A stretch of 64,000 nt of DNA from an uncultured bacterium (GTDB lineage Bacteria; Patescibacteriota; Patescibacteriia; CAIQCM01). Positions 5,288 through 61,320 of the stretch are shown here, piece by piece (position 1 is the stretch's first letter; the number at the start of each line of letters is the position of its first letter). The notes beneath the pieces were generated by a model. The model did not search any database. It was given only the letters and a program-made list of their open reading frames with translations, and was not told the origin of the DNA. The stretch is from the NCBI GenBank assembly GCA_963708045.1, contig OY970181.1, positions 707,740 through 771,739 of the forward strand. Direction: 5' to 3'. Both the position numbers and the translations under genes were made by a program.

Positions 5288-6166
5288 ATGCCGACGGGAA
5301 ACATTAAACACATTGGTTTTATAATGGACGGCAATCGTCGCTGGGCTAAGGGTAATGGTTTGCCGACTTTTGAAGGGCATCGGGTCGGTAATGATTTGGT
5401 TAAAAAAGTCGGGCCTTGGTGTTTGGCTCGCGGGATAAAGTATATTACTTTTTACGCTTTTTCAATTGAAAATTGGAAGCGCACCAAAGACGAAGTTGGA
5501 TATTTAATGGAGCTTTTGATGTCCGACATTACCAAAGAGTTGGATTATTTAACCAAGGACAATATAAGATTAAAAATAATCGGCCGGCGCGCCGACCTTT
5601 CTCCAAAACTGCAAAACGCGATTGCCGAAGCTGAAGAAAAAACCAAAAATTATTCCGCTGGCGTTATACAGCTCGCTGTTTCTTATGGCGGACGCGATGA
5701 GATTGTCCGTGCAGCCGTCAAGGCGGCTCTGGCTCAGGAAATTACCGAAGAGGGAATCGTAAAAAATTTAGACACCGCCGGAATCCCTGACCCTGATCTT
5801 ATTATTCGCACGTCGGGGGAGCAGCGCCTTTCTGGTTTTCTCACTTGGCAGTCAATTTACAGTGAACTTTTATTTTTAAATAAACATTGGCCAGATTTTT
5901 CCGAAGCCGATCTTGATGCGGCGATTGCTTGGTATTCTGAGAGAGATCGAAAGATACGGAAAATAGAAAACGGGGCACGGCGCTGTTGCGTCGTGCCCCG
6001 ATTGGTCGGCTGTGTCTACTTGGTTTTGGTGCCTAGAGCGGTGTGCGCAGTGGTGCCGTTTAAAGCGACTGACATTTGTATCATCGCTCTCTCTTTCATC
6101 ATAAACGGCCACCACCATCGCTTGCTCAACCGGTCAAGAAGTCCTTGGAAGTTCTTCCTGATCTGA
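5288..6166 (+). CDS. uppS: Undecaprenyl-diphosphate synthase (UppS); native C-terminus probably near nt ~5965, ORF reads through ~65 extra codons into foreign high-GC DNA
   Basis: DGNRRWA signature, RLSGFLTWQS...SELLF..WPDF; after ...AWYSERDRKIRK the reading frame continues across a 12-bp-stem hairpin (5973-6001) with no stop until 6166, overlapping a convergent ORF. Confidence 0.8.
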   Translation: MPTGNIKHIGFIMDGNRRWAKGNGLPTFEGHRVGNDLVKKVGPWCLARGIKYITFYAFSIENWKRTKDEVGYLMELLMSDITKELDYLTKDNIRLKIIGRRADLSPKLQNAIAEAEEKTKNYSAGVIQLAVSYGGRDEIVRAAVKAALAQEITEEGIVKNLDTAGIPDPDLIIRTSGEQRLSGFLTWQSIYSELLFLNKHWPDFSEADLDAAIAWYSERDRKIRKIENGARRCCVVPRLVGCVYLVLVPRAVCAVVPFKATDICIIALSFIINGHHHRLLNRSRSPWKFFLI

Positions 6167-6773: not shown

Positions 6774-6846
6774 GTAACAACTTTTAACTGTTAACTTTTA
6801 GGTTTTAGCAAGCCACTAACAGTTAAAAGTTAATAGTTAACAGTTG
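6774..6846. repeat. Intergenic heptamer-unit inverted repeat, family 4 (AACTGTT/AACTTTT ... AAAAGTT units)
   Basis: taacaacttttaactgttaacttttagg...ctaacagttaaaagttaatagttaacagttg immediately upstream of rarA start. Confidence 0.8.
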
Positions 6847-6848
6847 AT

Positions 6849-8096
6849 ATGTCCGATTTATTTGACTTAAAATTAGAACAAGAACTAAAGAAGTCCGCGC
6901 CGCTTGCTGATCGGATGCGTCCTGTTTCCTTGGACGACTATGTGGGGCAAGAAAAACTCATTGGGCCGGGCGCGACTTTGCGGACGCTGATTGATCGCGA
7001 TGAGCTTCCTTCAATGATTTTTTGGGGGCCGCCGGGAACGGGGAAAACAACTTTGGCACGCATTATCGCCAAACTAACGCGTTCGCGTTTTGAACAAGTG
7101 TCGGCGGTTTCTTCGGGCATTGCCGAATTGCGCCGCGTCGCGGACGAAGCTCGGGAAAAAAGAAAACTAACCAATACACGCACGATTCTTTTTGTTGACG
7201 AAATTCATCGCTGGAACAAATCACAGCAAGACGCTTTACTTCCCAGTGTTGAAAGCGGAATTATTACGCTTATTGGCGCGACGACCGAGAATCCGTCTTT
7301 TGAAGTTAACAGCGCCTTGCTTTCGCGCTCGCGCGTTTTTGTTCTTGAAAAACTTACCGCCGAGGATATTAAAAAATTGTTGGAGCGGGCGATTAAAAGT
7401 CCGAATGGACTGGACGGAAAGGTAAAAGTTGACGATCAAGCGCTTGATTTTTTGTCATACATTGCCGATGGCGATGCGCGCGTGGCTTTAAATTCTTTGG
7501 AAATTGCTGCTAAGGCTTTAAAAATTTCTAAGCGTCAAGTTTTAAAAGTAGAAGCGGTTAAATATGCGCTTGCCAAAACTCATTTGCGTTACGACAAAAC
7601 CGGCGAAGAGCACTACAACATTATTTCCGCCTTGCATAAATCAATGCGCGGCTCGGACGCTGACGCCGCTCTTTATTGGCTTGGGCGAATGCTTGAGGCG
7701 GGGGAAGATCCGCTTTATGTGGCGCGGCGTTTGGTTCGTTTTGCTTCGGAAGACGTTGGTCTTGCTGATCCGCAAGCGCTCGTTCTTGCTATGAGCGCGT
7801 ATAATGCCGCGCACGCCATTGGGATGCCCGAGTGTAATGTAATTTTGGCCGAAGCCGCCGCCTATCTGGCGACCGCGCCAAAATCAAACAAATTGTATGT
7901 CGCTTACGAAGCAGTGCAAAAAGACATTAGCGAACTTCCAAACGAGCCCGTGCCGCTCCATTTGCGCAACGCGCCGACCAAATTAATGAAAGAATTGGAC
8001 TATGGTAAGGATTACAAATATAACCCCGATTTTACCGAGCCGGTTAACCAAGATTATCTGCCGGAAAAGTTAAAAGGCAGAAAATATCTAAAATAA
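6849..8096 (+). CDS. rarA: Replication-associated recombination protein A (RarA/MgsA AAA+ ATPase)
   Basis: RMRPVSLDDYVGQE, Walker A GPPGTGKTTLA, Walker B ILFVDEIHRWNKSQQDALLP, C-terminal MgsA helical lid motifs. Confidence 0.9.
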   Translation: MSDLFDLKLEQELKKSAPLADRMRPVSLDDYVGQEKLIGPGATLRTLIDRDELPSMIFWGPPGTGKTTLARIIAKLTRSRFEQVSAVSSGIAELRRVADEAREKRKLTNTRTILFVDEIHRWNKSQQDALLPSVESGIITLIGATTENPSFEVNSALLSRSRVFVLEKLTAEDIKKLLERAIKSPNGLDGKVKVDDQALDFLSYIADGDARVALNSLEIAAKALKISKRQVLKVEAVKYALAKTHLRYDKTGEEHYNIISALHKSMRGSDADAALYWLGRMLEAGEDPLYVARRLVRFASEDVGLADPQALVLAMSAYNAAHAIGMPECNVILAEAAAYLATAPKSNKLYVAYEAVQKDISELPNEPVPLHLRNAPTKLMKELDYGKDYKYNPDFTEPVNQDYLPEKLKGRKYLK

Positions 8097-9305: not shown

Positions 9306-11113
9306 TGATTAAGAATTTTTCACGAAAAAAAAATTCTTTAGGCACGGTCGTTCGCGACCGTATTTTGGCTGGTCTCGCGGTTTTTATCGGGTTAGTTTGT
9401 CTCGTCCGCCTTTTTCAACTACAAGTTTTGGATGCTTCGTTTTATAAAGCTTTGGCCAGCGGCCAGCGCAATGTTTTTTCAAAATTAATCCCCGAACGCG
9501 GCGACATTTTGGTGCGCGATGCTGGTGGAAAAGAATATGCCGTCGCCGCCAATCGCGATATGTGGATGGTCTATGCTGATAATCGCAAAATAACCGACCC
9601 AGCCGCAACGGCCAAGGCGCTCGCGCCACTCCTTGTCGCGCCGGTTTTGGAAAAAGATAAAACACCAGAAGTAATTGTTGAAGAAAAAAAAGCAGCGCTG
9701 GCTACAAAAGAAGAAGAATTAAAAAAACGCTTGTCCGTTTCAACTAATGCGTATAATCCCTTGGCGCACGAATTGGATGACGTCGCTTGTACTGCTATTA
9801 AGTCGCTCGGTATCGCGGGAATTGAATTTACGCCGGAAAAAATTCGTTATTATCCCGATCAAAAATTTGGCGGCCAAGTGCTTGGTTTTTTTGGTTATGA
9901 AGGAAATGAAAAAGTCGGACGTTATGGGATAGAGGGCTATTGGGAAAAAGAGCTGGCTGGTACGCAAGGATTTTTAAAAAGCGAAAGCGATCCGCATGGC
10001 CGGACGATTACCGTTGCCAATACTTCTTTTCGCGAAAAGCAGGACGGCGCTGACCTTGTCCTCACGATTAATCGGACGCTTCAAGACGCTAGTTGTGGCT
10101 GGCTTGATGATTGGGTGAAACAACATGGCGCGAGCTCGGGTTCGCTCGTGATGCTGGATCCAAAAACCGGCGCGATAATGGCGATGTGTGGCTCGCCAAA
10201 TTTTGATCCAAATAATTATGAAAAAGTCGGGTCATCCGGCGATTACAACAATGCCGCCATTTGGAACGCTTATGAACCCGGATCGGTAATGAAAGCCATA
10301 ACCATGTCGGCGGCGCTGGATCAGGGCAAAGTAACCCCGACTACGACCTATACTGATTTTGGCGAACTTACGATTAACGGAAAGGTAATTAAAAATTCCG
10401 AACCAAATCCCTTTGGTGTTCAAACGATGATTCAGGTTTTGGATAATTCGCTCAACACTGGCGCGATTTTTGCGATGCGCCAAATTGGCGGCACGATGTT
10501 AAAAAATTATTTGTTCGCTTTTGGTTTTGGAAAAAAATTAGGCATAGAAACCGATACCGAATCGCCAGGAAATTTAGCCAGCCTTGACCAGAATCGTGAA
10601 ATTTTTGCCGCAACAGCCTCGTTTGGACAGGGGATTACGACCACTGTTCTTCAACTGGCTTCGGCTTACGGAGTAATGGCTAATGGTGGAAAGTTGATGA
10701 AGCCATATGTTGTTGATGAAGTTCGCAATTACGACGGGAAAATTGTAAAAACCGCGCCAAAATTAATTGGGCAAGCGATTTCCGAACACGCCGCCAATTT
10801 GATTACCGGTATGCTTGTTTCGGTGGTAAAAAATGGTCACGGCAAGCGTGCCGGCGTTCCTGGGTATCTTGTTGCTGGAAAAACCGGCACAGCGCAAATT
10901 CCGCGTATGGATGGCCTTGGTTATGAAGATAAGGATACAATCGGAACGTTTGCCGGCTATGCCCCAGTTTCCGACCCAAAATTTGTTTTGGTGGTGCGCG
11001 TTGACAGGCCGCAAGATGTTCAGTTTGCTGAAAGCTCGGCCGCGCCGCTTTTTGGCAAGATTGCCGCTTATACCTTGCAATACTTAGGCATTCCACCGGA
11101 TGATGTTAAGTGA
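9305..11113 (+). CDS. Penicillin-binding protein (FtsI/PBP2-type transpeptidase)
   Basis: N-terminal TM anchor, dimerisation domain, SxxK (GSVMK), SxN (LNTG) and KTGTA motifs. Confidence 0.85.
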   Translation: MIKNFSRKKNSLGTVVRDRILAGLAVFIGLVCLVRLFQLQVLDASFYKALASGQRNVFSKLIPERGDILVRDAGGKEYAVAANRDMWMVYADNRKITDPAATAKALAPLLVAPVLEKDKTPEVIVEEKKAALATKEEELKKRLSVSTNAYNPLAHELDDVACTAIKSLGIAGIEFTPEKIRYYPDQKFGGQVLGFFGYEGNEKVGRYGIEGYWEKELAGTQGFLKSESDPHGRTITVANTSFREKQDGADLVLTINRTLQDASCGWLDDWVKQHGASSGSLVMLDPKTGAIMAMCGSPNFDPNNYEKVGSSGDYNNAAIWNAYEPGSVMKAITMSAALDQGKVTPTTTYTDFGELTINGKVIKNSEPNPFGVQTMIQVLDNSLNTGAIFAMRQIGGTMLKNYLFAFGFGKKLGIETDTESPGNLASLDQNREIFAATASFGQGITTTVLQLASAYGVMANGGKLMKPYVVDEVRNYDGKIVKTAPKLIGQAISEHAANLITGMLVSVVKNGHGKRAGVPGYLVAGKTGTAQIPRMDGLGYEDKDTIGTFAGYAPVSDPKFVLVVRVDRPQDVQFAESSAAPLFGKIAAYTLQYLGIPPDDVK

Positions 11114-11200
11114 GGTGTTAGGTTTTAGGTATCAGGTGTTAGGTTTTAACATACGACCTTTGACCTGTAACCTTGAACCTTGCACCTTGAACCTAATAAC
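11114..11200. repeat. Intergenic heptamer-unit inverted repeat, family 3 (AGGTGTT/AGGTTTT ... AACCTTG units)
   Basis: aggtgttaggttttaggtatcaggtgttaggtttta...acctttgacctgtaaccttgaaccttgcaccttgaacctaa. Confidence 0.8.
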
Positions 11201-11203
11201 AAT

Positions 11204-12493
11204 ATGAAAAACCTTATTGAAAAAATATTGTCCGCGCTTGCAAGCGCGATCATAAAAAAGTATAAGCCGATGGTGGTCGCGGTTACTGGTTCGGCTGGTA
11301 AGACCTCGGCCAGAGAAGCGATTTACGCGGCGGTAAATACCGAGTTTGACGCGCGCGCTTCGCTAAAAAATTATAATAACGACCTTGGCTTGCCGCTTTC
11401 AATCATCAACGCTAAGTCGGTCGGAAAAAATATTTTTAGCTGGCTTAAAATTATTGCACGCGGCGTTTCGTTTATTGTTTTTTTGCGGCGTTTTCCCGGC
11501 GTTTTAATTTTAGAAATGGCGGCTGATCATCCGGGCGACCTCGCACGGCTCGTAAAAATTGCACCGCCGAATGTTTCCGTTATTACCTCAGTCGGTTCGG
11601 CGCATATGGAATTTTTCGGTTCCGAAAGCGCGATTGCCGAAGAAAAAGCAACCCTTGTTCATGCGCTGACCGTTGATGGCGTTGCTGTTTTGAATGCTGA
11701 CGATTCGCGGGTTAATGGTATGCGCTCGACTTGCAAAGGAAAAATTATAACTTTTGGAATAGACAATGTTGCCGACGTTCGTGCGACAAAAATTGAATAT
11801 CTTCGCGACACGCAATCGCTTGCGGTAACCGGACTTTGTGTTGAAGCCGCAATTAAAAATCAAAAAGTAAATTTTATTCTTCATGGTGCGATCGGAAAAA
11901 ATCATGTCTTGGCCGCGCTGGCTGGTTTGGCCGCTGCTTATGCGTTAAAAATAAAACCAGAAACCGCCGCGCTAAATTTGGAAAAAATAAAACTCGCCCC
12001 TGGTCGGTCGCATTTAATTCCGGGCATAAAAGAAACAATGATTATTGACGACTCATACAACGCTTCGCCGGCAACGGTTTTAAGTGCCTTAGTGGCGTTA
12101 AAAGATTATCCGGTCGTCGGAAACGGCCGACGCATTGCGCTTATCGGCGATATGCTTGAGCTTGGTGGCTATACCGAAACCGCGCATAAAAATGTTGGCG
12201 AAACGGCGGCAAGACTTGGTATTGATTTTTTGTACGGTGTTGGCGAACGAATGCACGACGCTTGCACCGCGGCGCGCGCCGCGGGAATGGGGGAGGAACA
12301 AATTATTCATATGGAAAATGCCGGCTCGGCCGCGCGCTTTCTTCAGGAACGTTTGCATCCAAACGACGTGATTTTAATTAAGGGCTCGCAAGGAATGCGC
12401 ACTGAACGCGCCGTCCGCGAACTAATGCTTGAACCGGAAAAAGCCGAAGAACTTCTTTGTCGGCAGGGGAAGGAGTGGGTGGATGGCACGTAG
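11204..12493 (+). CDS. murF: UDP-N-acetylmuramoyl-tripeptide--D-alanyl-D-alanine ligase (MurF)
   Basis: VVAVTGSAGKTS P-loop, Mur ligase middle/C-terminal motifs (DDSYNASP). Start moved to ATG 11204; upstream TTG lies inside the repeat. Confidence 0.85.
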   Translation: MKNLIEKILSALASAIIKKYKPMVVAVTGSAGKTSAREAIYAAVNTEFDARASLKNYNNDLGLPLSIINAKSVGKNIFSWLKIIARGVSFIVFLRRFPGVLILEMAADHPGDLARLVKIAPPNVSVITSVGSAHMEFFGSESAIAEEKATLVHALTVDGVAVLNADDSRVNGMRSTCKGKIITFGIDNVADVRATKIEYLRDTQSLAVTGLCVEAAIKNQKVNFILHGAIGKNHVLAALAGLAAAYALKIKPETAALNLEKIKLAPGRSHLIPGIKETMIIDDSYNASPATVLSALVALKDYPVVGNGRRIALIGDMLELGGYTETAHKNVGETAARLGIDFLYGVGERMHDACTAARAAGMGEEQIIHMENAGSAARFLQERLHPNDVILIKGSQGMRTERAVRELMLEPEKAEELLCRQGKEWVDGT

Positions 12494-12576
12494 CACGTGG
12501 CATGTGGCATGTGGCATGTGGCGTGTGGCACGTAGCACGTAGCGCGTGGCTTGTAGTACGTGATACGTAGTAGGTG
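12491..12576. repeat. Tandem heptamer array, family 2 (GCACGTG/GCATGTG/GCACGTA, ~11 units), overlapping murF stop
   Basis: tagcacgtggcatgtggcatgtggcgtgtggcacgtagcacgtagcgcgtggcttgtagtacgtgatacgtagtaggtgg; 7-nt periodicity; second copy at 19046-19092. Confidence 0.8.
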
Positions 12577-12604
12577 GTTACTGTGGAATTAATGAAAAAA
12601 TCTT

Positions 12605-12646
12605 TCGCATCACATTAAATCGCGATCGCGATTTAATGTGATGCGA
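12605..12646. repeat. 42-bp perfect palindrome centred on CGATCG
   Basis: tcgcatcacattaaatcgcgatcgcgatttaatgtgatgcga (perfect inverted symmetry). Confidence 0.85.
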
Positions 12647-12663
12647 GTAAATATTTGAATAAA

Positions 12664-12691
12664 CGAAAACCCTTGAGACACTCAAGGGTTT
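12664..12691. terminator. Bidirectional intrinsic terminator hairpin
   Basis: aaaacccttgagacactcaagggtttt: 10-bp GC-containing stem flanked by A-run and T-run. Confidence 0.6.
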
Positions 12692-12718
12692 TGCGGTTAA
12701 GAGGAAGTGACGGTTTGT

Positions 12719-13315
12719 TTATTTGTCCGGTAGAACGCCGGGGTGGGTGAAGCTGAAAAAGGCTTGGCCTGTTCTTTGGCTTATTTCCCCCCTGAGCGGT
12801 CCGACCGATATGCCGGGATAGACCGTGAAAATCTCCAGACTCCAACCACCCCCAATGCGCATGAAGTCGCAGGAAAAAGTCACGGCATAGGTGAGCATTG
12901 CTAAGTGATGCGTGCCTTGTTTGACCCTAAGCCCAGTACAGCTTCTGTTAAGGCCAAAGGGTTCAAGATCGTCAACTTCAAAGAGCGTGAGCGGCGCGGT
13001 TGAGGACCAGCCAACCTGACGAGAGTGGGTGACGGAAAAATACCTTTGCCGTTCACGGGAGCCGATGATGGCGTTGGTGATACTCGGCAATTCAGCGCAA
13101 AATCGCTGAACGAAATCTCCGTCGGCAAAAACTTCGTTAAAGTTGCGCCAAAGCAAGAAGTTGCCGGCAAGCGGTTCGCCACCTGGTCGGAAACAGGTGT
13201 TTCTAAGGCAAAGCTCAACAGTATCTCGACAGTAGACGGTTGTGTCGGCAAACCCAGGAATACGAAGGAACCGTGAGAACGCTACGTGTGATGGCATCGT
13301 GTGAATCCTTTGCAC
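12719..13315 (-). CDS. Hypothetical protein (198 aa)
   Basis: Long ORF in GC-richer DNA, divergent from 13541 gene; no recognisable domain. Confidence 0.45.
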   Translation of the reverse strand: MQRIHTMPSHVAFSRFLRIPGFADTTVYCRDTVELCLRNTCFRPGGEPLAGNFLLWRNFNEVFADGDFVQRFCAELPSITNAIIGSRERQRYFSVTHSRQVGWSSTAPLTLFEVDDLEPFGLNRSCTGLRVKQGTHHLAMLTYAVTFSCDFMRIGGGWSLEIFTVYPGISVGPLRGEISQRTGQAFFSFTHPGVLPDK

Positions 13316-13381
13316 GTTGTTACTGCCCCATTGTTAACTGTGGTAGCGGGCATCCGAAGATGATATTCTAACTCGCTGTTT

Positions 13382-13424
13382 TCGTCAAGGATCATTGACG
13401 AAACAGATAAAATATGATATAAAC
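13382..13424 (+). promoter_or_regulatory. Sigma70-like promoter (TTGACG-17-TATAAA) with near-palindromic operator tcgtcaaggatcattgacga overlapping -35
   Basis: tcgtcaaggatcattgacgaaacagataaaatatgatataaa; same operator recurs at 14819-14837. Confidence 0.55.
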
Positions 13425-13540
13425 TAACGTTGTTCTTTGACTGAAATTACGATCAGAATCAGGAATCTTTAGCTGAATTTTCGGCCGATGGTTCTTGATT
13501 CTGATTCATACCAAACCACAAAAATTGGACAGGAGCCGCT

Positions 13541-13915
13541 ATGATCAATGCATTCTTTTCACTCACGTCGCTTGTTGGTGGTATCAGTTCTGGGCGGTTT
13601 AGCCAGAATGATCTAGACACTGGTTTTTTCTGCCTTCTTCGGGAACGGCGGTTCGTGATGGATCAACCCGGGGAACTTCCTGGGACGGCTGAGGATTATC
13701 AACAAGTTGTTCGTGCGATTCAACAAGCTGAGAGTGATGGTCGTGCTCTTTGGTTTGATGGAATCCCAACCTACGGTCCGCTCTATGATTTTCTTCAGAA
13801 AAACGGTTTCCTTGAACTTGTTCAGGCAATCGGACGTAGGAGAGAAGATCGCTTGGTGTGTAGTGTCGTTCAAAAAGCGGCAATGAGTTTCAAAATCACG
13901 TTTATCTATTTTTGA
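13541..13915 (+). CDS. Hypothetical protein (124 aa)
   Basis: ORF following promoter/operator, 5'UTR contains inverted repeat atcagaatcaggaatc...gttcttgattctgat. Confidence 0.45.
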   Translation: MINAFFSLTSLVGGISSGRFSQNDLDTGFFCLLRERRFVMDQPGELPGTAEDYQQVVRAIQQAESDGRALWFDGIPTYGPLYDFLQKNGFLELVQAIGRRREDRLVCSVVQKAAMSFKITFIYF

Positions 13916-13927
13916 GTCGCGATTTCT

Positions 13928-13978
13928 TCACCCACCACAAAAGCATTCACTGCTTCCGTGGTGGGTGTTTTTGTTTTT
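13928..13978 (+). terminator. Intrinsic terminator (island terminator family)
   Basis: cacccaccacaaaagcattcactgcttccgtggtgggtgtttttgtttttt: 10-bp stem + T-run. Confidence 0.7.
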
Positions 13979-14020
13979 TAATTCTTCCAACTTTTTCCGA
14001 TCGGAAAAAGTTGGAAGAAT
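13979..14020. repeat. 42-bp perfect palindrome centred on CGATCG (copy 1 of 2 near-identical)
   Basis: aattcttccaactttttccgatcggaaaaagttggaagaatt; near-identical copy at 15581-15622. Confidence 0.85.
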
Positions 14021-14140
14021 TTAAAAATAGAAAGTCAAAGGAATTAAGTCTAATTCTTGACATAACCTCTCTGAAGTATCGGCAGGGAAATACGTGGTTC
14101 TTTGAGTTTAGAATGTGGGAAGTGATATAATAACGTCGTT

Positions 14141-14656
14141 ATGACGAAGTGTTGTTTTCGCACACAAACACCAAACCGTGCGGCGTTCACACTGGTTGAA
14201 CTTTTGGTTGTGATTGCGATTATTGGCTTGCTTTCAACAATCGCGGTGGTGGCTTTGGGTTCGGTGAGAAGGCAGGCGCGAAACACCAAACGGATTGCCG
14301 ATGTTAAACAGCTTGTAACAGCTTTTAGTTTGGGACTTGATGCCAATGGCACCTATCCGTCGTCTGGTGGCGATGTTTACGCCTGTATTGCTTCAACTTG
14401 TACCGCCAGTTGGAGTGGCTTTGCCCCCAACGAGATAGTTAACACCTTTTTTCAAACGTATATGGCAACCAAGCCAACAGACCCCAATGACAATAATTCT
14501 CGTTTGCAAGGCGGATATCTTTATAACGGACAAGACCCCTCCCTTGGAGGTGTTCCTGGAATAAATTACCTCCTTGAGCCGCCAGCCACTTGCGGAGTTG
14601 GGCAACTCATCGGAACGAACGCAAACTACGTTTGGTGTGGCGTTAAGCTTGAGTAA
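14141..14656 (+). CDS. Type IV pilin-like protein (class III signal peptide)
   Basis: N-terminal prepilin motif RAAFTLVELLVVIAIIGLLSTIAVVAL (conserved with the other pilins in this window); C-terminal Cys pairs. Confidence 0.7.
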   Translation: MTKCCFRTQTPNRAAFTLVELLVVIAIIGLLSTIAVVALGSVRRQARNTKRIADVKQLVTAFSLGLDANGTYPSSGGDVYACIASTCTASWSGFAPNEIVNTFFQTYMATKPTDPNDNNSRLQGGYLYNGQDPSLGGVPGINYLLEPPATCGVGQLIGTNANYVWCGVKLE

Positions 14657-14712
14657 GTGTTATTGGCACTCGTTGTAAACTTTTAGCTCAATACTCCACG
14701 CTAATGGATAAC

Positions 14713-14862
14713 TTTATAAATAGGGTCAGGTCTGATTTTAAATGTAAAAAAATTTTAGATTGAATGTTGGGGTTTTGGTTGACACATTAGGTGGCGCAGT
14801 GGGTATAGAACGCGGGGTTCGTCAAGGATCATTGACAAAGTGTTAAAAAACCGTATACTTTT
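14713..14862 (+). promoter_or_regulatory. Conserved ~100-nt upstream module (copy A) + operator cgtcaaggatcattgaca overlapping TTGACA-16-TATACT promoter
   Basis: tttataaatagggtcagg...ttaggtggcgcagtgggtatagaacgcggggttcgtcaaggatcattgacaaagtgttaaaaaaccgtatact. Confidence 0.55.
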
Positions 14863-14900
14863 TTTGACTGAAGAAACTCGGAAACAAAAGGGGGAAAAGG

Positions 14901-15455
14901 ATGAAAAATTTGATGTTCGTTTTGGTTGCGCTCTTTGCAATAAACTGCAGTTCGTCGGATGGTGGCAAAACGTCTTCGCCTGCGGGTGTGAACGCACCCG
15001 CTCTAATTTGCGGAAGCGATGTCTCTTGCGGAGGTGATCTTTCTGGGGAATGGCTCGTCACGGAAACGTGCATGAGCAAAGAATTTCGGGATAATTTTGA
15101 CAAACTTTCAAAGGGGAATTCTTACCAATCATGCGTTTCGTCGGCGGAAATGAAACTACTCTCGCCTGGTGTTGTGGTGACATTTCCGAATGGGAATTGG
15201 TTCACCAATGATAGTATCAAAATCGTTCTTGAGTATTCAATGTCAGAGGCTTGCCTGCAAAAGTACGGTAAGAATTGTGCTGTGATGGGAACAAATTTGG
15301 ACTGTTCGCTCACCAACAACGATCTCTGTACGTGTGCTACGATTCCAGAGGGAACGGAAGAACAGGAATCAATGCACAACTACTGCGTTCAGGGCGACAC
15401 GCTCGTATTTTCCACCGGCGTTGGCGTGGCTTTTTTTCTTACGCGGATGAAATAA
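14901..15455 (+). CDS. Cysteine-rich putative lipoprotein (184 aa)
   Basis: Strong RBS aaagggggaaaaggATG; signal peptide with lipobox-like LFAINC; ~12 Cys. Confidence 0.6.
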   Translation: MKNLMFVLVALFAINCSSSDGGKTSSPAGVNAPALICGSDVSCGGDLSGEWLVTETCMSKEFRDNFDKLSKGNSYQSCVSSAEMKLLSPGVVVTFPNGNWFTNDSIKIVLEYSMSEACLQKYGKNCAVMGTNLDCSLTNNDLCTCATIPEGTEEQESMHNYCVQGDTLVFSTGVGVAFFLTRMK

Positions 15456-15495
15456 AAGACAATACCAAACAGCGTAGGGTGCGACTTAATCTCAC

Positions 15496-15546
15496 ACCCG
15501 CGACAAAAGCACCTACTGCTTCTTTCGCGGGTGTTTTTGTTTTTGA
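15496..15546 (+). terminator. Intrinsic terminator (island terminator family)
   Basis: cacccgcgacaaaagcacctactgcttctttcgcgggtgtttttgtttttg. Confidence 0.7.
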
Positions 15547-15580
15547 ATTTTTTTGTATGTGATTATATTTTTATTTTTTA

Positions 15581-15622
15581 AATTCTTCCGACTTTTTCCG
15601 ATCGGAAAAAGTCGGAAGAATT
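15581..15622. repeat. 42-bp perfect palindrome centred on CGATCG (copy 2)
   Basis: aattcttccgactttttccgatcggaaaaagtcggaagaatt. Confidence 0.85.
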
Positions 15623-15637
15623 ATAATAGATGGAAAA

Positions 15638-15770
15638 TTTATAAAATATGGACAAGCTATATTTATGATAAAAATACCGAGATTGAATCTTGGGATTTTT
15701 AAGTGGCGCAATGAATATAGAACGCGGGGACTAAGTATCTTGACAAAATGGCCAAAATATAGTAAGAGTT
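15638..15770 (+). promoter_or_regulatory. Conserved upstream module (copy B) with promoter-like hexamers
   Basis: tttataaaatatggacaagctatatttatgataaaaataccgagattgaatcttgggatttttaagtggcgcaatgaatatagaacgcgggg...cttgacaaaatggccaaaatatagt. Confidence 0.5.
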
Positions 15771-15820
15771 CAGTAGCTGCTTAAAAAAGCAGCTCCTCTC
15801 AACATAGGAAGGAGCTCGGA

Positions 15821-16627
15821 ATGCAGACACAACACGATCAGACCAGGAGCGCTATTCCCTCCATTGCCACTAAATCTGTGGCATCCGCGAGATATGGTAT
15901 AGACAACCCGCCGCTATCTGAAGAATCGGCTGCCACGCGAATAGAGACTCTGGTTGGCGAAATTCAGGTCGTTGAAACAGACTTGGAGATGAGCAACCCC
16001 GAGACATATGCAGGTTTGGGAACCTATGCCGAGTGGCGCAAACGCGCGGTTAGTGCGCTCGGACACATAAAGAAGGAACTCAAGTTCCTGCGTCGATGGG
16101 TTGATCAACAACGTGTGGCGAAAAAAGCGGCCAAGCGCCAGGTCGCCGACGAGTCCGCCATCCGTAATTACGAAGGACTCGGCATTATCGCTCGCGGGAT
16201 CAAGGCTCGAGCAATCGAGTTGGCGGTGAAAATTGGTGGGGCGTATGAGGTGCGCTATAGAGAGTCCGTCTCGCCCCCTGATTTGCTAACAGCGATTGCA
16301 AGACGCACCGAGCTCGTCGCAATCAAGGAAAGTTTGGGGGATGCTTTTCAGGAAATAACGGCTGCGTGGACCAGTCATCCGTTGCGTCGTGAAGAGATGG
16401 GTGTTGCCAAGGCACCGCTCAATAAAATCCTCAAATGCGTTGAAAGGGAACTTGGTGTGATAAAGGTGTACATCGCTCAGAGTACACCTCGACAACCCAC
16501 TCCAGTTGCTGGATGGAAGACTATCTGCATTGGTTTTTTCGAGAGGATGCTCGAAAACGGCGCTGATTTAACTCAGGAAGAAGTGGCAGTATTGGTTTGG
16601 TTAAAAGCCACCAAGATGCCTGCCTAG
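15821..16627 (+). CDS. Hypothetical protein (268 aa)
   Basis: RBS aggaaggagctcggaATG; hairpin agctgcttaaaaaagcagct in 5'UTR; no recognisable domain. Confidence 0.5.
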   Translation: MQTQHDQTRSAIPSIATKSVASARYGIDNPPLSEESAATRIETLVGEIQVVETDLEMSNPETYAGLGTYAEWRKRAVSALGHIKKELKFLRRWVDQQRVAKKAAKRQVADESAIRNYEGLGIIARGIKARAIELAVKIGGAYEVRYRESVSPPDLLTAIARRTELVAIKESLGDAFQEITAAWTSHPLRREEMGVAKAPLNKILKCVERELGVIKVYIAQSTPRQPTPVAGWKTICIGFFERMLENGADLTQEEVAVLVWLKATKMPA

Positions 16628-16641
16628 ACGTCCACAACCCG

Positions 16642-16687
16642 CACCCGCGACAGAAGTATTCGTTACTTCTCTCGCGGGTGTTTTTTA
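16642..16687 (+). terminator. Intrinsic terminator (island terminator family)
   Basis: cacccgcgacagaagtattcgttacttctctcgcgggtgttttttaag: ~17-bp stem, one mismatch. Confidence 0.75.
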
Positions 16688-16761
16688 AGTTTTTTTTAAG
16701 GATTGACAGATGCTTTAAACTGGGTTGATATAGAAGAGCCATTTATGGGCGAGGAGGGAAA

Positions 16762-17532
16762 ATGAATCCTTATATAGGCATAACCGATTTCACCGAATCG
16801 AATCAAGTTCGTCGCATACTCGAAGTATTTCATACTGTTTTTCCTGATGGTACGAATTGGCGTCTGCATGTCGGCGTGATGATGAGTTACAAAACACTCA
16901 GAGGGTTGCCGACAAAGTGGCAAGCATCTTTTCCGGCCAAGGAAAAAATCGCCAGCATTTTCTTTTCTCATGAGGCCTATAACTGTCTGCACTACGCCGA
17001 CTACGACGCCAATCATGAACTGTCAAAAATCTTGAGTGAGGCGATTTGTTGGTGCGGGCGCGGATTAAACGCTGTTCAGCTTGATATGATCTGGCCTAAC
17101 CCCGGGGAAGTCGCAGAAGCAATTCATCGTTCACGCATAAACATTGAGGTCATTCTACAGCTTGGCGCAAACGCTCTGGCGGAAACAGGTGGTGATCCAG
17201 CTGTCACTGTGAACCGTCTTCGCGATTACGAAGGAGTAATCCACCGTGTGCTCATTGACAAGAGCATGGGTCGCGGGCTCGTCATGGACGCCAACGTGCT
17301 TCTTCCTTTCGTTTCCGCCATCCGACAACATTTCCCGACATTGGGCATAGGCGTGGCTGGTGGTCTGGGGCCAGGCACGGTCGAGGCGGCACAACCACTC
17401 CTTAGAGCTTTTCCTGATCTAAGTATTGACGCCCAAGGACGACTTCGTCCAAGTGGAAACGCTCTGGATCCAATTGATTGGGATATAGCCTCGGAATACC
17501 TAGTTCAAGCCGCCTCAATCATTAGAGAATAG
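16762..17532 (+). CDS. TIM-barrel protein resembling phosphoribosylanthranilate isomerase (TrpF-like)
   Basis: YIGITDF (cf. KICGIT), GLNAVQLDM (cf. LNAVQLHG), VLIDKSMGRGLVMD, IGVAGGLGPGTV (cf. LSGGLNPENV) pattern match recalled TrpF motifs; not verified by search. Confidence 0.4.
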   Translation: MNPYIGITDFTESNQVRRILEVFHTVFPDGTNWRLHVGVMMSYKTLRGLPTKWQASFPAKEKIASIFFSHEAYNCLHYADYDANHELSKILSEAICWCGRGLNAVQLDMIWPNPGEVAEAIHRSRINIEVILQLGANALAETGGDPAVTVNRLRDYEGVIHRVLIDKSMGRGLVMDANVLLPFVSAIRQHFPTLGIGVAGGLGPGTVEAAQPLLRAFPDLSIDAQGRLRPSGNALDPIDWDIASEYLVQAASIIRE

Positions 17533-17567
17533 ACTCTCAAACGAAGGAAATACGACCCTCGTTTCAC

Positions 17568-17607
17568 ACCCGCGACAGAAGTATTCGTTACTTCTCTCGC
17601 GGGTGTT
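17568..17607 (+). terminator. Intrinsic terminator (near-identical to 16642-16687)
   Basis: cacccgcgacagaagtattcgttacttctctcgcgggtgtttttgtttttt. Confidence 0.75.
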
Positions 17608-17652
17608 TTTGTTTTTTAATTTTTGTATATTGTAATTTAAATAGACGAAAAA

Positions 17653-17785
17653 TTTATAAATAGGATCAAGCTATGCTTCTGATAAAAAATACTGAGATTA
17701 AATCCTGAAATTTTTAAGTGGTGCGTTGGATATGGAAGGGGGGATTAAAGTCGGCTATTGACTTTTTGATGACTGCGAACTATTC
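17653..17785 (+). promoter_or_regulatory. Conserved upstream module (copy C) followed by TTGACT-17-TATTCT promoter
   Basis: tttataaataggatcaagctatgcttctgataaaaaatactgagattaaatcctgaaatttttaagtggtgcgttggatatggaagggggg...ttgactttttgatgactgcgaactattct. Confidence 0.5.
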
Positions 17786-17847
17786 TTTTGAATCCTTTTG
17801 GCAAGGCCGAAGGTAAAGTTCTGTAAACAAAAACAACGGGGGTTGTC

Positions 17848-18768
17848 ATGGGCTATTACGAAGAACGAAGACTCGAGCTTGCGCAAGAATTAGGTGAACA
17901 GGTAGCTTTAGTTGTCAAGATTGGAGATAGGCTGGTTCATGGGCGAGCTGTTCTTGGTGAGTTGGAACAAAAACACGCTCGGGTATCATGGTTTCCAGTT
18001 GCTGGTAATGTTGACGCGGCTGGATTGCGACTTACGGAGGCAAGGGAAAGGCTAGTCAAAGCGGTCGGGTATTTAGGGAATTGTGATCGTCAGGCGATTA
18101 ACCAAATGGACGTCTTGATTGACACGGCACGCCAGCGTTTGCTCCAGGCGAGCAACTGCATAGAATCGCTTACGGTTTGTCGCGATACACTTGCAGAACT
18201 AGAAAAAGGCTCGAGGCTTAACGTTCCAAGATTGTCTGAATTGTTAGTTGTGGCAAGTCGCTGTTCTCAAGATAGCGATATGACGGAGGTTAACAATTTA
18301 ATGCGTCAAACTAGTGACGAAGATGGCAAACAACACCCCGACCTTCTACTGATCGCTGATTTGCACGGTCGCGCTGAAGTGGCTCTAAATAGTATTTTGG
18401 CGAAGCGTGGAGATTCGCGAATGGTTGAATGGGAAACAAGGCGTCTTGGGAACGTTCAGTTTGTTGCGAGAATAATTATCAAACTCTTGGAGCAGTACGT
18501 GCTTGACCACTATGAGGCTTTTGTTCCTCAGCCGCCGGATCTCTCCGCCCTCCGAACGCTTCTCAGTTTGTCTGAGTTCGGGCCGCCACGACAAAATCTC
18601 AAAGTGCAGATGCAATATGCTGAGAGGGCATTGCGCGATGCTCGTGATAATCTCGTCAAGGCGGAAGCGGTGGGTGGTTGCTATGTCGGTGTGAAAGGGC
18701 GAACAAAAATGCAATATAACTTGGCCAGTTTGCACGGCGGCGATAATGCCGCACCAGATCCGCATTAA
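17848..18768 (+). CDS. Hypothetical protein (306 aa), predominantly alpha-helical-looking
   Basis: RBS acgggggttgtcATG; no recognisable domain; followed by hairpin cacccc/agggtg + T-run (18842-18872). Confidence 0.5.
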   Translation: MGYYEERRLELAQELGEQVALVVKIGDRLVHGRAVLGELEQKHARVSWFPVAGNVDAAGLRLTEARERLVKAVGYLGNCDRQAINQMDVLIDTARQRLLQASNCIESLTVCRDTLAELEKGSRLNVPRLSELLVVASRCSQDSDMTEVNNLMRQTSDEDGKQHPDLLLIADLHGRAEVALNSILAKRGDSRMVEWETRRLGNVQFVARIIIKLLEQYVLDHYEAFVPQPPDLSALRTLLSLSEFGPPRQNLKVQMQYAERALRDARDNLVKAEAVGGCYVGVKGRTKMQYNLASLHGGDNAAPDPH

Positions 18769-18964
18769 CCGAATGACTTAAGACAAACGACCTCGCCTGG
18801 TACGCCGGGCGGGGTTTTTCTTTATTTATAAAATACAAAAGACCACCCCGATTAAAGGGTGATCTTTTTTGCTGAGCCGACCTCGGTCCAAGTAGGCAAG
18901 CTAAGCTTGTCTTGTGGTAGCGAAGCTGAGCTTCGCCGTCATTCTTGAAACCGAGCTCTGCTCG

Positions 18965-19041
18965 GGTAGCCCCAACCGGATTTGAACCGGTGTATCCACG
19001 TTGAGAACGTGGCGTCCTAGGCCAGACTAGACGATGAGGCC
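18965..19041 (-). tRNA. tRNA-Glu (anticodon CUC)
   Basis: Reverse complement GGCCTCATCGTCTAGTCTGGCCTAGGACGCCACGTTCTCAACGTGGATACACCGGTTCAAATCCGGTTGGGGCTACC folds as cloverleaf: 7-bp acceptor with G1-U72 and U5-G68 wobbles, anticodon stem CCACG/CGTGG with loop TTCTCAA, T-arm ACCGG-TTCAAAT-CCGGT; strongly resembles bacterial tRNA-Glu D-arm (TCGTCTAG...AGGAC). Confidence 0.65.
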
Positions 19042-19045
19042 GTAT

Positions 19046-19092
19046 TGGCACGTGGCACGTAGCACGTGGCACGTAGTTTGTAGTCTGTGTTG
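19046..19092. repeat. Tandem heptamer array, family 2 (second copy)
   Basis: gcacgtggcacgtagcacgtggcacgtagtttgtagtctgtg directly abutting tRNA-Glu 5' end. Confidence 0.8.
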
Positions 19093-19186: not shown

Positions 19187-19498
19187 TTAGTCGCCCAGTC
19201 CCTGTACTCGTGGCGGGTCGTTTGTGAGATGTGCTGTTCTGGGTACGCCGCTTCGCACTCTGACGCCTGATCTGATTCTCGGTCTTTTGCGGACAAGTTC
19301 TGTTGGCTCTGGTTCTTTCCATGTTTTTAAAATCAACAGAATGGCGAACAGTATTGAAACTAGGGGTAAACCGATTAGAGGCGCTAAGTCACCATATTGA
19401 ATGTTTTCCCAGACGATGCTTTTGGGTGTGTTTTGTTCAAGGTATAGCGTCGCGGTAAACGGTACGACTACTCCGATGATTAAAAGAACGTTTTTCAT
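19187..19498 (-). CDS. Small hypothetical membrane protein (~104 aa, 2 TM)
   Basis: Start chosen at ATG with SD GGGAGGAATCAAGATG; longer listed ORF N-terminus is unlikely. Confidence 0.5.
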   Translation of the reverse strand: MKNVLLIIGVVVPFTATLYLEQNTPKSIVWENIQYGDLAPLIGLPLVSILFAILLILKTWKEPEPTELVRKRPRIRSGVRVRSGVPRTAHLTNDPPRVQGLGD

Positions 19499-19579
19499 CT
19501 TGATTCCTCCCAATGTTTTCCGACAAATAAATTTATCACGCCGCGTTTTAGGCGTCAATGTTGACCGCAAAGCGCCGGC

Positions 19580-20296
19580 GTGGGAATATTTGAGCGTATG
19601 TTAAATGCTTTAAGCTGGTTCTGGGATAAATTTTTGTACGCGCCGCTATTTAATGCGTTAATTTGGCTTTATAACGGACCGGCCGACCAAAATTTGGGCG
19701 CGGCGGTTATTTTGCTAACCATCGGCATTCGCCTTCTAATTTTGCCGGTTTCAATTTTAGCGGAACGCAGTAAGCATATTTACGTTACGGTTGAAGAAGA
19801 AATTTTGGAAATTGAAAAACAGCATAAAAACGATCCGGAAATTCAAAAAGAACGGATTCGCGAACTTTTGCGCAAACGTCACGTGTCGCCGTGGTCGCGG
19901 GTGGCCTCACTTGGGCTCCAGCTTTTAGTGCTCATCATTTTGTACCAGGTATTTATGGATGGTATTAAAATGAGTAACTTTAAAGCGCTCTATCCGTCCG
20001 TTATCCACCCTGACATTGTCTTTACTTATTTTTGGGGAATTAATTTGGGCGCGCGCGATTGGATCGGCGCGGCGGTCATCGCCCTTTGGTTATATTTTGA
20101 AATTAGTCACGATCAAAAAAAACACGGCGAAAGCGTAACTAAGGCTGATATTTTTTATCGCGTGGCGTTTCCGATTTTTTCCTTTGTCGCGCTTTATTGG
20201 TTGCCGTCGGTTAAGTCCCTCTTTATCTTGACCTCTATGATCTTTTCCGTTATAATCAGCTCATTCAGAAAGATATTTTTCGGGCACAAAGAATAA
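19580..20296 (+). CDS. yidC: Membrane protein insertase YidC/Oxa1 family (short form)
   Basis: LTIGIRLLILPVSI conserved YidC TM2 motif, multi-TM; start could be 19595. Confidence 0.75.
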   Translation: MGIFERMLNALSWFWDKFLYAPLFNALIWLYNGPADQNLGAAVILLTIGIRLLILPVSILAERSKHIYVTVEEEILEIEKQHKNDPEIQKERIRELLRKRHVSPWSRVASLGLQLLVLIILYQVFMDGIKMSNFKALYPSVIHPDIVFTYFWGINLGARDWIGAAVIALWLYFEISHDQKKHGESVTKADIFYRVAFPIFSFVALYWLPSVKSLFILTSMIFSVIISSFRKIFFGHKE

Positions 20297-20932: not shown

Positions 20933-21592
20933 ATGAAGAAACTAGAGGTCAGAAAGGAAACAATTCTGGATTCTTTGGTTAGAGAATACGTAAAAACCGC
21001 CGAGCCGGTAAGTTCGCTGTACCTTTCGGAAAAAGCCGAGTTGGCGGTTTCTTCGGCAACGGTTAGAAATGAATTGGCCGATTTGGAAAACGAGGGGTTT
21101 CTTGTTCAGCCGCATACGTCCGCCGGCCGTATTCCAACCGAAAATGCTTACCGGTATTTTGTTGAATATTTGTCGCGGCCGCAAAAAAACGACAGCGTTT
21201 TTGTTGCTCGGCTGCAATCGTTTTTTAAAGAACGCGACGACGCCAAAGCCGCGGCCAAGATGCTGGCGGCCGAAACTAAGGAATGCGTTTTTGTTCTGTT
21301 TGAACCGAATGATACCTATTATACCGGACTGACTAATCTTTTTTCGCAGCCGGAATTTGGCGAGCGCGAGATTGCCTTAAATATTTCCGGCGCCCTTGAT
21401 CAGTTGGACGAAGCTGTGTCCAAATTAAAACACGAAGGCGGCGTTAAAACGCTTATTGGTCGCGAGTGTCCGCTTGATCGGCGCTCTTCAATTGTTTATG
21501 TGGGCGCTGGAAAGCGGATCGTCGGTGTTGTTGGGTTGGTGCGAATGGATTACGAAAAAATTATTGGGCTCTTAAATTCACTCAATAAATAA
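20933..21592 (+). CDS. hrcA: Heat-inducible transcription repressor HrcA (short form)
   Basis: AEPVSSLYLSEK...VSSATVRNELADLENEGFLVQPHTSAGRIPTENAYRYFV matches HrcA N-terminal wHTH; preceded by CIRCE. Confidence 0.85.
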   Translation: MKKLEVRKETILDSLVREYVKTAEPVSSLYLSEKAELAVSSATVRNELADLENEGFLVQPHTSAGRIPTENAYRYFVEYLSRPQKNDSVFVARLQSFFKERDDAKAAAKMLAAETKECVFVLFEPNDTYYTGLTNLFSQPEFGEREIALNISGALDQLDEAVSKLKHEGGVKTLIGRECPLDRRSSIVYVGAGKRIVGVVGLVRMDYEKIIGLLNSLNK

Positions 21593-21657
21593 CTGTTAAC
21601 TGTTAACTTTTAACTATTAGGTTGCTAAAAGTTAAAAGCTAAAAGTTAAAAGTTAAT
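21591..21657. repeat. Intergenic heptamer-unit inverted repeat, family 4
   Basis: aactgttaactgttaacttttaactattaggttgctaaaagttaaaagctaaaagttaaaagttaat. Confidence 0.8.
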
Positions 21658-22101: not shown

Positions 22102-22133
22102 AATAAAAAAATTTGATAAACTGTTGATTAGGT

Positions 22134-22238
22134 GGCGTCATTCCGAGCCTGTCTGGTCGCTCTGTCCAAGGCGAGGAATCACGAAGCTTGCTAGAGACTT
22201 TGAGTTCCCTCATCGCTTCGGCTCTTCGGGATGACGCC
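22134..22238 (+). repeat. 105-nt structured repeat element (copy 1) with ~14-bp terminal inverted repeats
   Basis: ggcgtcattccgagcctgtctggtcgctctgtccaaggcgaggaatcacgaagcttgctagagactttgagttccctcatcgcttcggctcttcgggatgacgcc; ~88% identical by eye to the reverse complement of 35827-35931. Confidence 0.8.
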
Positions 22239-22290
22239 AAAAACGGATTAGGTATTAGATATTAGAAATTAGATATTAATAATAAAATAT

Positions 22291-25621: not shown

Positions 25622-25712
25622 TTAAGAGGTTTCAGGTTCAAGGTTCAAGGTTTTAGGTGATTAACGTTACGACGTGCTACCTAACACCTAACACCTAAAA
25701 CCTTGAACCTAA
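25622..25712. repeat. Intergenic heptamer-unit inverted repeat, family 3 (second copy)
   Basis: ggtttcaggttcaaggttcaaggttttaggtg...cacctaacacctaacacctaaaaccttgaacctaaac. Confidence 0.8.
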
Positions 25713-61300: not shown

Positions 61301-61320
61301 AAAATTATCAACCACCATTT

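Follow-up and report, generated by a model that had tools for sequence, protein, structure and literature searches.

The occurrence of genomic islands at tRNA genes is well established, and the locus described here is an island of that ordinary kind in an unusual lineage. It lies in a 64,000-nucleotide stretch of contig OY970181.1 (assembly GCA_963708045.1, positions 707,740 to 771,739), which was analyzed at its full length and is called the window below. The stretch is compact (GC ~45%, genes mainly on the plus strand, short intergenic gaps), and its MurF, which is found on a contig of 1,188,223 bp (1.19 Mb), has Patescibacteria as its named homologues. The segment ~12577–18964, bounded by murF on one side and by the 3′ end of a tRNA-Glu(CUC) gene on the other, is probably a horizontally acquired, strain-specific accessory island of ~6.4 kb with seven mostly orphan genes (o1–o7; Table 1). 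An earlier reading of the letters without database searches (the sequence-only reading) had placed seven open reading frames (ORFs) between murF and yidC, and all seven are present there. The tRNA gene follows o7, with a small membrane ORF (o8) next; as had been described, it adjoins a tandem heptamer array, from which 4 nt separate its 5′ end, and its 3′ end faces the island. Besides tRNA-linked islands, the locus invites comparison with integron arrays and with phage ‘morons’, which are autonomous promoter-gene-terminator units inserted in prophages.

The locus was compared with the murF neighbourhoods of four relatives (loci L008, L009, L010, and L013), found via MurF homologues; a MurF-based scan of genome contigs had as its sole match an irrelevant Clostridia and so gave no GTDB-representative relative for comparison. 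The flanks are syntenic across these relatives (murF, yidC, Band7, and HrcA). In L009 (MurF 68% identical) the slot is empty, with a murF–yidC gap of 1.17 kb and the order murF, a ~250-bp stretch with two partial tRNA-Glu 5′ halves and a plus-strand tRNA-Glu(CUC), two small ORFs on the minus strand, yidC, Band7, HrcA, and GrpE. In L008 (MurF 81%), murF is followed by a small ORF, a 263-aa ORF, a helix-turn-helix (HTH) protein, and a 522-aa large serine recombinase (LSR) with Resolvase, Recombinase, and Zn-ribbon domains, the last codons of which are the complement of a minus-strand tRNA-Glu(CUC). L010 (MurF 55%) has a GIY-YIG gene, other ORFs, an HTH gene, and an LSR overlapping the minus-strand tRNA-Glu, and 18 nt of the tRNA 3′ end recur as a direct repeat 5.4 kb away, at the far boundary; L013 (MurF 57%) carries yet other genes after murF. 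No homologues of the island proteins were found in these four loci. Blastn homology between the window and both L008 and L009 halts at 12483, at the end of murF, and restarts exactly at 18965, the tRNA 3′ end; this break, together with the empty or different slots, indicates a hypervariable integration site at which the seven genes are genome-specific. To judge from these loci, the murF/tRNA-Glu(CUC) slot is a variable integration hotspot. The sequence-only reading had proposed an acquired, variable island beside the tRNA and a comparison with related genomes, and both the slot contents and the rarity of o7 (one homologue besides itself) and the unrelated context of the closest o6 homologue (55% identity) bear the proposal out. 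The comparison documents a hypervariable murF/tRNA-Glu(CUC)/yidC hotspot in a Patescibacteria lineage with a small, tightly packed genome.

Some further rearrangements were seen around the slot. L008, L009, and L010 carry two extra ~100-nt repeats, each with the tRNA 5′ half, upstream of tRNA-Glu(CUC); the window is without them and a TGGCACG array occupies that place. The whole tRNA block of L009 has the opposite orientation to that of the window, L008, and L010. Nested inverted duplications are found in the L010 insert (11858–12268 versus 13496–13906, 411 bp, 99.5%; 13898–14090 versus 16936–17128, 193 bp, 98.4%), one of which is an inverted second LSR 3′ end joined to the other end of the element, and this looks like an attP-type junction or the product of an LSR-mediated inversion or tandem insertion. 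The tRNA-Glu(CUC) of the window has a U5-G wobble in its acceptor stem, as read from the sequence. For this tRNA we considered a recombinant origin, as a chimera joining a 5′ acceptor strand of L008 type to a 3′ strand of L009 type, and set it aside, as one C-to-T change explains it equally well.

Using the L008 LSR as a query against metagenomes, 50 loci were returned (L017–L060 among those examined). Enough contig is available past the gene in 25 of the loci, and in 20 of these the LSR ORF ends within a tRNA gene of the opposite strand (overlap 25–37 nt) or abuts one; an adjacent divergent HTH gene accompanies each LSR, and at least ten tRNA species are targeted by the family (Glu-CUC, Ser-GCU, Arg-GCG, Gly-GCC, Tyr, three Leu, Ile, Thr, and Pro stand at LSR ends). 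By gene position, the LSR family is one of tRNA-targeting integrases, for which tRNA-Glu(CUC) beside murF is a documented target. The LSRs of L008 and L010 are 91% identical, whereas the MurF of their hosts are ~55% identical, which points to recent horizontal spread. The family, with frames ending inside the target tRNA, may be a main route of gene gain in these bacteria; such LSR ORFs, along with the window-wide heptamer hairpins described below, are more unusual findings than the island.

The composition of the island is foreign, though not in its GC content. The higher GC that had been judged by eye for the block did not hold up on computation (46.5% versus 45.5% elsewhere; coding GC 49.2% versus 45.6 ± 3.1%, ~1.15 standard deviations [SD]), while the windowed composition check proposed with it found tetranucleotide and codon usage clearly atypical. 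The tetranucleotide distance from the window average was 0.24 and 0.23 in two 6-kb windows over the island, 0.15–0.16 in partly overlapping windows, and 0.10–0.15 in non-overlapping windows. Codon-usage log-likelihoods were below the host average for each of o1–o7 (z = −2.5, −1.7, −1.5, −0.7, −3.0, −2.3, and −2.2), with o5 the most atypical. An ancestral block, lost from the sampled relatives or replaced in them and odd in composition through gene-specific constraints and not foreign origin, would agree with a GC near that of the host, with the lack of a mobility gene or att repeat, and with the resemblance of o3 to the other pilins of the window. This history is very unlikely, however, as the four relatives (55–81% MurF) keep the flanking synteny without any island gene, the tetranucleotide distance is ~1.5–2 times that of every non-overlapping window, host-type heptamer arrays are missing inside the island, and mobile elements of the relatives demonstrably use the slot; given the foreign composition and the mobile elements in the slot, an ancestral block with four losses is unparsimonious.

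The heptamer arrays belong to a kind of repeat with described counterparts. Cyanobacterial STRR sequences are intergenic heptanucleotide tandem repeats. The TAACTGA repeats of Beggiatoaceae, Cyanobacteria, and Bacteroidetes are likewise intergenic heptamers (PMC4679880); for Patescibacteria, no such arrays turned up in our literature searches. Like these repeats, the window arrays are tandem 7-nt units, intergenic, often beside start or stop codons, and of several unit families per genome, one of which (TAACTGT/TAACAGT) is one base off TAACTGA; they differ in that most consist of two adjacent arms pairing into an extended hairpin with periodic interruptions (z = −4.0 and −4.7), in the host being a Patescibacterium, and in the TGGCACG unit being nearly palindromic. 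Tandem Repeats Finder (TRF) and a period-7 scan placed arrays of units other than TGGCACG in ~12 further intergenic regions of the window, for a total of ~20 array rows over ~13 intergenic regions, none coding except for codons at gene ends. By a hand count from these outputs, arrays occur in ~12 of the 21 host gaps between genes that are 40 nt or longer, versus none of the seven island gaps (Fisher p = 0.01). The unit families (ATGAACC/GGTACAT, TAACTGT/TAAAAGT, AGGTGTT/AACCTTG, ATTAGAT, and others) reappear at distant loci, such as ATGAACC/GGTACAT at 1.5, 39.7, 43.4, and 51.1 kb. Array density is far higher in the window than in the relatives, with two arrays in 15 kb of L009 and none in L010 and L013.

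The two arrays at the slot, which had been reported as flanking GCACGTG-type arrays, are real at both places but not special to the locus. The left array has 9.6 clean units (~13 with degenerate ones) and begins 7 nt ahead of the murF stop, its first unit overlapping the last murF codons; the right array has four clean units and two to three degenerate ones. Their unit and orientation are identical, the unit is found nowhere else in the 64 kb, and they are the sole same-family pair kilobases apart, the other pairs being 5–30 nt apart. L008 has arrays of different units at both positions, one directly behind the murF stop and the other upstream of the tRNA region, flanking a different insert, and L009 has a positional counterpart of the window's array upstream of mgsA. 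Because arrays of this class occur throughout the window and L008 has counterparts in the same positions around a different insert, we read the TGGCACG arrays, from their distribution, as host intergenic features and not as att sites or integration scars. The sequence-only reading had taken them for the flanking direct repeats of an element integrated beside tRNA-Glu, created or used by the integration, a view that suits a pair of arrays with one unit and orientation bracketing the island plus the tRNA. It is decidedly improbable in light of the ~12 other intergenic regions with arrays and no island between them and of the L008 arrays; moreover, the right array is past the tRNA 5′ end, on the far side of the gene and off the island edge, yet homology restarts at the 3′ end, and it is there that the elements documented at tRNA-Glu cross over and that L010 has its 18-nt tRNA repeat. 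As host features, the TGGCACG arrays may once have been one pair of pairing arms around tRNA-Glu, which the insertion would have pushed 6.5 kb apart (predicted pairing of left and right arrays −45.5 kcal/mol versus −31.3 ± 4.9 for shuffles), and host-type heptamer hairpin arrays can act as an internal marker of native versus imported DNA. Arrays can also inflate ORF calls: the mechanical starts of LepA and a pilin (39751–39790 and 51168–51240) extend into heptamer arrays (e.g., the N-terminus MVHGTWLMVH), and by reading of the translations the true starts are probably downstream.

If the island was acquired, as is probable, its entry would have been a site-specific integration at the 3′ end of tRNA-Glu, and the HTH-LSR recombinase module would have been lost since, leaving an immobile remnant. 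The island resembles tRNA-linked islands, including the LSR elements of L008 and L010, in abutting the tRNA 3′ end at the point where homology restarts, in being strain-specific between conserved flanks with atypical tetranucleotide and codon usage, in a cargo of surface proteins and proteins of unknown function, and in occupying a slot that holds recombinase-bearing elements in relatives. It differs in having no recombinase, no tRNA-derived distal direct repeat, and no excision or HTH gene, and as the LSR elements sampled share no cargo with it, the island is at best a decayed remnant of one.

Several results weigh against this history. The window has neither an LSR gene nor a fragment or pseudogene of one by tblastn (the LSR of the relatives matched only the tRNA-encoded tail), and no recombinase of any kind was detected there by Pfam searches of the island and uncertain ORFs, the remaining ORFs being read as housekeeping. 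A copy of the tRNA 3′ end, as a displaced tRNA-Glu fragment, was sought at the left boundary with up to three mismatches and was not found, and blastn-short gave nothing above chance. The DNA beside the tRNA has no similarity to LSR-element DNA, and homologues of the island genes are absent from all 50 LSR loci, save for a generic pilin. The pairing of the two TGGCACG arrays beats shuffles only moderately (z about −2.9), depends on plus-strand G-U pairs, and fails on the tRNA's own strand, and either array alone folds no better than shuffles. Overall GC is barely distinct from that of the host, and o3 is 40–44% identical to three other pilins of the window, from which the donor was probably of a related lineage or the gene an internal duplicate. 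The relatives compared number only four, the nearest at 81% MurF, so differential loss is conceivable. Because no recombinase, att repeat, LSR-element DNA, or shared cargo was found, it is the position of the island that points to LSR delivery; most of the other LSR loci are without a long tRNA 3′ repeat, which makes its absence from the window weak evidence against such delivery.

Foreign DNA could also have entered without site-specific integration, through homologous recombination at the conserved murF and tRNA flanks with the DNA of a strain that already had the island, or through a piecemeal build-up of moron-like genes. The lack of an LSR remnant or att repeat fits such an entry, as do the independent gene units with codon z from −0.7 to −3.0 and the presence in the window of genes for type IV pilus machinery and for a TrwB/VirD4-like ATPase. 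Type IV pilus and TrwB/VirD4-type systems can serve DNA uptake. It is nonetheless unlikely, since the right edge of the island is exactly the tRNA 3′ end used by the LSR elements of relatives, and the shared terminator and module families described below argue for one source or in-place diversification and not for independent donors. As observations on the window, the coupling domains (PF10412 and PF02534) are in an 845-aa protein encoded at 29789–32326 among housekeeping genes, and a full type IV pilus gene set was read from the translations at ~43.9–55.4 kb; these may matter for DNA uptake or transfer.

Most of the island proteins have few or no detectable relatives. There were no matches for o1, o2, o4, and o5 in Pfam, NCBIfam, or PHROGs, for o1, o5, and o7 in PDB sequence searches, or for o1 and o5 by tblastn against phage and plasmid collections. 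Beside o3, o4, and o6, the cargo comprises four proteins without a match in the family libraries, among which o7 has just one homologue by sequence searches. Six proteins queried as one concatenated sequence also returned no homology match; this is uninformative, as o6 alone has 1592 homologous cluster representatives and single queries gave self-hits. The sequence-only reading had called o3 pilin-like, which is upheld by PF07963 (31.7 bits, cut-off 21.2) and TIGR02532 (27.3 bits, cut-off 16.3) and by the prepilin cleavage/methylation motif and hydrophobic helix of a type IV pilin. Its Cys-rich lipoprotein, o4, has the signal-peptide-like N-terminus and 11 Cys but a lipobox that is non-canonical by reading (A-I-N-C). 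For o6, described as TrpF-like, a (β/α)8 barrel was predicted with confidence (pLDDT 97), while similarity to PRAI and ribulose-phosphate epimerase was marginal (profile E = 0.03–0.16) and the nearest solved folds, triosephosphate isomerase, MJ1099, and OMP decarboxylase, reach a TM of only about 0.6. Its relatives (best identity 55%) are named ‘hypothetical protein’ in public sources, it has no Pfam or NCBIfam family, and its closest homologue is from an organism of 35% GC; o6 is predicted from its modelled fold to be a phosphate-binding-type TIM-barrel enzyme of an unnamed but widespread family. The only homologue of o7 besides itself in 5.8 billion sequences has 45% identity and lies on a 2.2-kb contig. 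It shares a conserved hairpin in the 5′ untranslated region (UTR), and promoter, UTR, ORF, and terminator recur as a unit in another organism; the low-confidence AlphaFold model of o7, from a two-sequence alignment, consists of helices only (pLDDT 53).

Functions in host interaction, defence, or variable surfaces had been suggested for the block. A surface or host-interaction function is plausible for o3, as a pilin, and o4, as a secreted Cys-rich protein, only. For defence, PADLOC gave two marginal matches to o1 (E = 0.02–0.04) and none to o2, o4, or o5, and the island contained no other match to its known defence systems. The island DNA had no match among 50,697 phage records and a plasmid collection, PHROGs returned pilin-type matches only, and IMG/VR had no match for o6, o7, or the terminator motif. 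On these searches, a prophage or defence-island reading is without support. The cargo of a variant pilin, a secreted Cys-rich protein, and a TIM-barrel family of >1500 cluster representatives would offer candidate strain-specific surface or metabolic traits.

From motif and promoter searches, the island genes are predicted to be laid out as separate, moron-like promoter-ORF-terminator units, and the self-contained units described in the sequence-only reading were confirmed through a terminator family, TTGAC boxes, and a shared upstream module. A TTGAC (−35-like) box is found within 130 nt upstream of all seven genes (background 0.0013 per nt), and four full promoter-like sites were called in the island. 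The terminator family, thought to serve almost every gene, has four homologous copies, after o2, o4, o5, and o6 (T1–T4); each is a two-tier stem (predicted −23 to −29 kcal/mol) followed by U5–6 G U5–6, and where the copies differ, both stem tiers show compensatory changes. The terminator of o7 is of another type and none is visible for o3. The ~100-nt upstream module is, as had been noted, common to o4, o5, and o7 (80–87% identity over 31–59 nt) and faint before o3, and it may be a common regulator-binding region spread via local duplication. An operator-like inverted repeat overlaps the −35 boxes of the divergent o1 and o2 promoters, with a second copy (86% identity) at 14811–14839, upstream of o4. 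The palindrome reported as two identical 42-bp copies is present twice, after T1 and T2 (42–52 nt, centred on CGATCG), and the copies differ by a single mirrored A/T to G/C change that leaves both perfect. The search for further copies of these motifs, proposed for the whole genome and run on the 64-kb window, gave matches for terminator, palindrome, and module inside the island only; the module search used the exact 31-mer of one copy and returned that copy alone. Rfam at the gathering score called two tRNAs only, and miRNA-type matches on the palindromes were sub-threshold, reflecting generic hairpins. The GTGGCGCAGTGGGTATAGAACGCGGGGTTCG stretch of the module is D-arm-like, and a tRNA-derived module was considered and rejected, with no ARAGORN or Rfam call there and no likeness to tRNA-Glu by reading.

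A T1-like terminator is also present in the L008 insert, which hints only weakly at a donor pool common to both. Both the island and native DNA have long perfect palindromes with CGATCG or GCGATCGC at the centre, and there is another at L008 6385–6420; the core equals the cyanobacterial HIP1 octamer. The second of the two hairpins between o7 and the tRNA (18868–18837, minus strand) resembles the hairpin after tRNA-Glu in L009.

Compared with phage morons, the island genes likewise have their own sigma-70-like −35 box and, except for o3, a strong intrinsic terminator, and the o7 unit with its UTR recurs in another organism; the island differs in that no phage structural, replication, or lysis gene is nearby and in that the units make up the whole of it instead of standing between phage genes. 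With integron arrays it shares tandem, unrelated single genes with a recurring structured element between them, but it has no IntI or attI, the recurring element is without attC core sites (RYYYAAC/GTTRRRY; 0 pairs on either strand versus ~1 in shuffles), and the units carry their own promoters and hairpins followed by U-runs in the manner of terminators. As an integron-like system the locus fails every defining test applied to its sequence. The shuffled cassette array that had been proposed would require the terminator-palindrome-module junctions to be recombination sites for single-gene cassettes, with a recombinase encoded elsewhere. Homologous junction modules of ~60–250 nt do recur between unrelated single-gene units, the palindromes keep perfect symmetry through a mirrored change, and the o7 unit turns up in another organism, but such exchange is extremely improbable here, with core-site pairs no more frequent than chance, no tyrosine or serine recombinase in the window, a promoter-like box of its own before every unit (unlike integron cassettes), hairpins and U-runs fully accounted for as intrinsic terminators, and no second locus found with the island modules. 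It is just as far-fetched that the junctions may be substrates of a non-integron cassette exchange of Patescibacteria, with single moron-like genes exchanged at a tRNA-Glu hotspot through a trans-acting recombinase, such as an LSR encoded elsewhere in the genome; if so, the mirrored palindrome changes would reflect a symmetric protein-binding or cruciform site.

Table 1. Features of the island, its surroundings, and the corresponding loci of relatives (window positions unless a locus is named).
Feature	Position	Strand	Details
murF	11180–12493		stop at 12491–12493
Left TGGCACG array	12484–12576		clean at 12484–12550/62, decaying to ~12576; TRF, repeat and pattern search
Palindrome, perfect 42-nt, centre CGATCG	12605–12646		−31.2 kcal/mol, region z about −10; uncertain left-boundary zone
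Hairpin between A-run and T-run	12666–12692	minus	terminator-like for o1; possibly for murF on plus strand
o1	12719–13315	minus	198 aa; no match in any library searched; codon usage z = −2.5
Operator-like inverted repeat TTCGTCAA-N6-TTGACGAA	13374–13402		repeat search and promoter scan
o2	13541–13915	plus	124 aa; no family match
Terminator T1 (after o2)	13926–13975	plus	−24.7 kcal/mol; two-tier stem and U-run
Palindrome copy 1 (core TTCCAACTTTTTCCGATCGGAAAAAGTTGGAA)	13976–14027		after T1
o3, type IV pilin-like	14141–14656	plus	prepilin N-methylation motif
Upstream module U1 and operator repeat	14700–14840	plus	ahead of o4 promoter TTGACA-16-TATACT (14832–14859)
o4	14901–15455	plus	184 aa; signal-peptide-like N-terminus; 11 Cys; no family match
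Terminator T2 (after o4)	15492–15545	plus	−23.4 kcal/mol
Palindrome copy 2	15575–15626		after T2; mirrored A-to-G/T-to-C difference from copy 1
Upstream module U2 and o5 TTGACA box	15619–15760	plus	
o5	15821–16627	plus	268 aa; no family, PDB, or phage match
Terminator T3 (after o5)	16639–16690	plus	−28.7 kcal/mol
o6, predicted (β/α)8 barrel	16762–17532	plus	256 aa
Terminator T4 (after o6)	17564–17615	plus	−28.4 kcal/mol
Upstream module U3, TTGACT promoter box, 5′ UTR hairpin	17634–17847	plus	hairpin conserved with sole o7 homologue
o7, predicted all-helical	17848–18768	plus	306 aa
Two terminator-like hairpins	18789–18868	plus; minus	first 18789–18816, plus, after o7; second 18868–18837, minus
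tRNA-Glu(CUC)	18965–19041	minus	ARAGORN and Rfam
Right TGGCACG array	19046–19092		clean to 19076, then decays; 5′ side of tRNA-Glu; TRF, repeat and pattern search
o8, small membrane ORF	19187–19570	minus	
yidC	19580–20296		
Other heptamer arrays, part 1	1577–1606, 6779–6849, 11113–11194, 21590–21656, 22247–22278, 25634–25703		intergenic
Other heptamer arrays, part 2	34434–34461, 39717–39781, 43437–43481, 51126–51238, 60907–60937, 63309–63340		intergenic
LSR of L008	L008 4476–6044		tRNA-Glu(CUC) at 6004–6081 on minus strand
LSR of L010	L010 15590–17155		tRNA at 17118–17195 on minus strand
Extra tRNA-5′-half repeats	L008 6051–6281; L009 11317–11613; L010 17166–17311		

Elsewhere in the window, a second tRNA gene shows traces of rearrangement. 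Downstream of the tRNA-Ser(GGA) at 61135–61221, across a gap of 32 nt, comes a repeat of the tRNA 3′ half, which belongs to a 52-nt family (61179–61230 and 61254–61305, 94% identical) in which the first 42–43 nt, the tRNA part, are identical by reading; a copy of the tRNA 5′ end is ~67 nt upstream (61064–61082). The region 61064–61305 looks like an att-type integration and excision scar at a second tRNA of the genome.

Two copies of a ~110-nt structured element, with closing arms GGCGTCATTCCGAG ... CGGGATGACGCC, are present at 22125–22245 (plus) and 35820–35950 (minus). Three base pairs are kept via compensatory changes and there was no Rfam match; by coordinates, the copies are sense-upstream of a small heat-shock-like ORF (22291) and a pilin (35803), and the element might act as a regulatory RNA in cis or be a small mobile repeat. 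Lastly, by reading of the translations, a dTDP-glucose 4,6-dehydratase-like gene appears split into 2719–3003 (94 aa) and 3033–3710 (225 aa) with 29 nt between, which could be due to a frameshift, a pseudogene, or a sequencing error.

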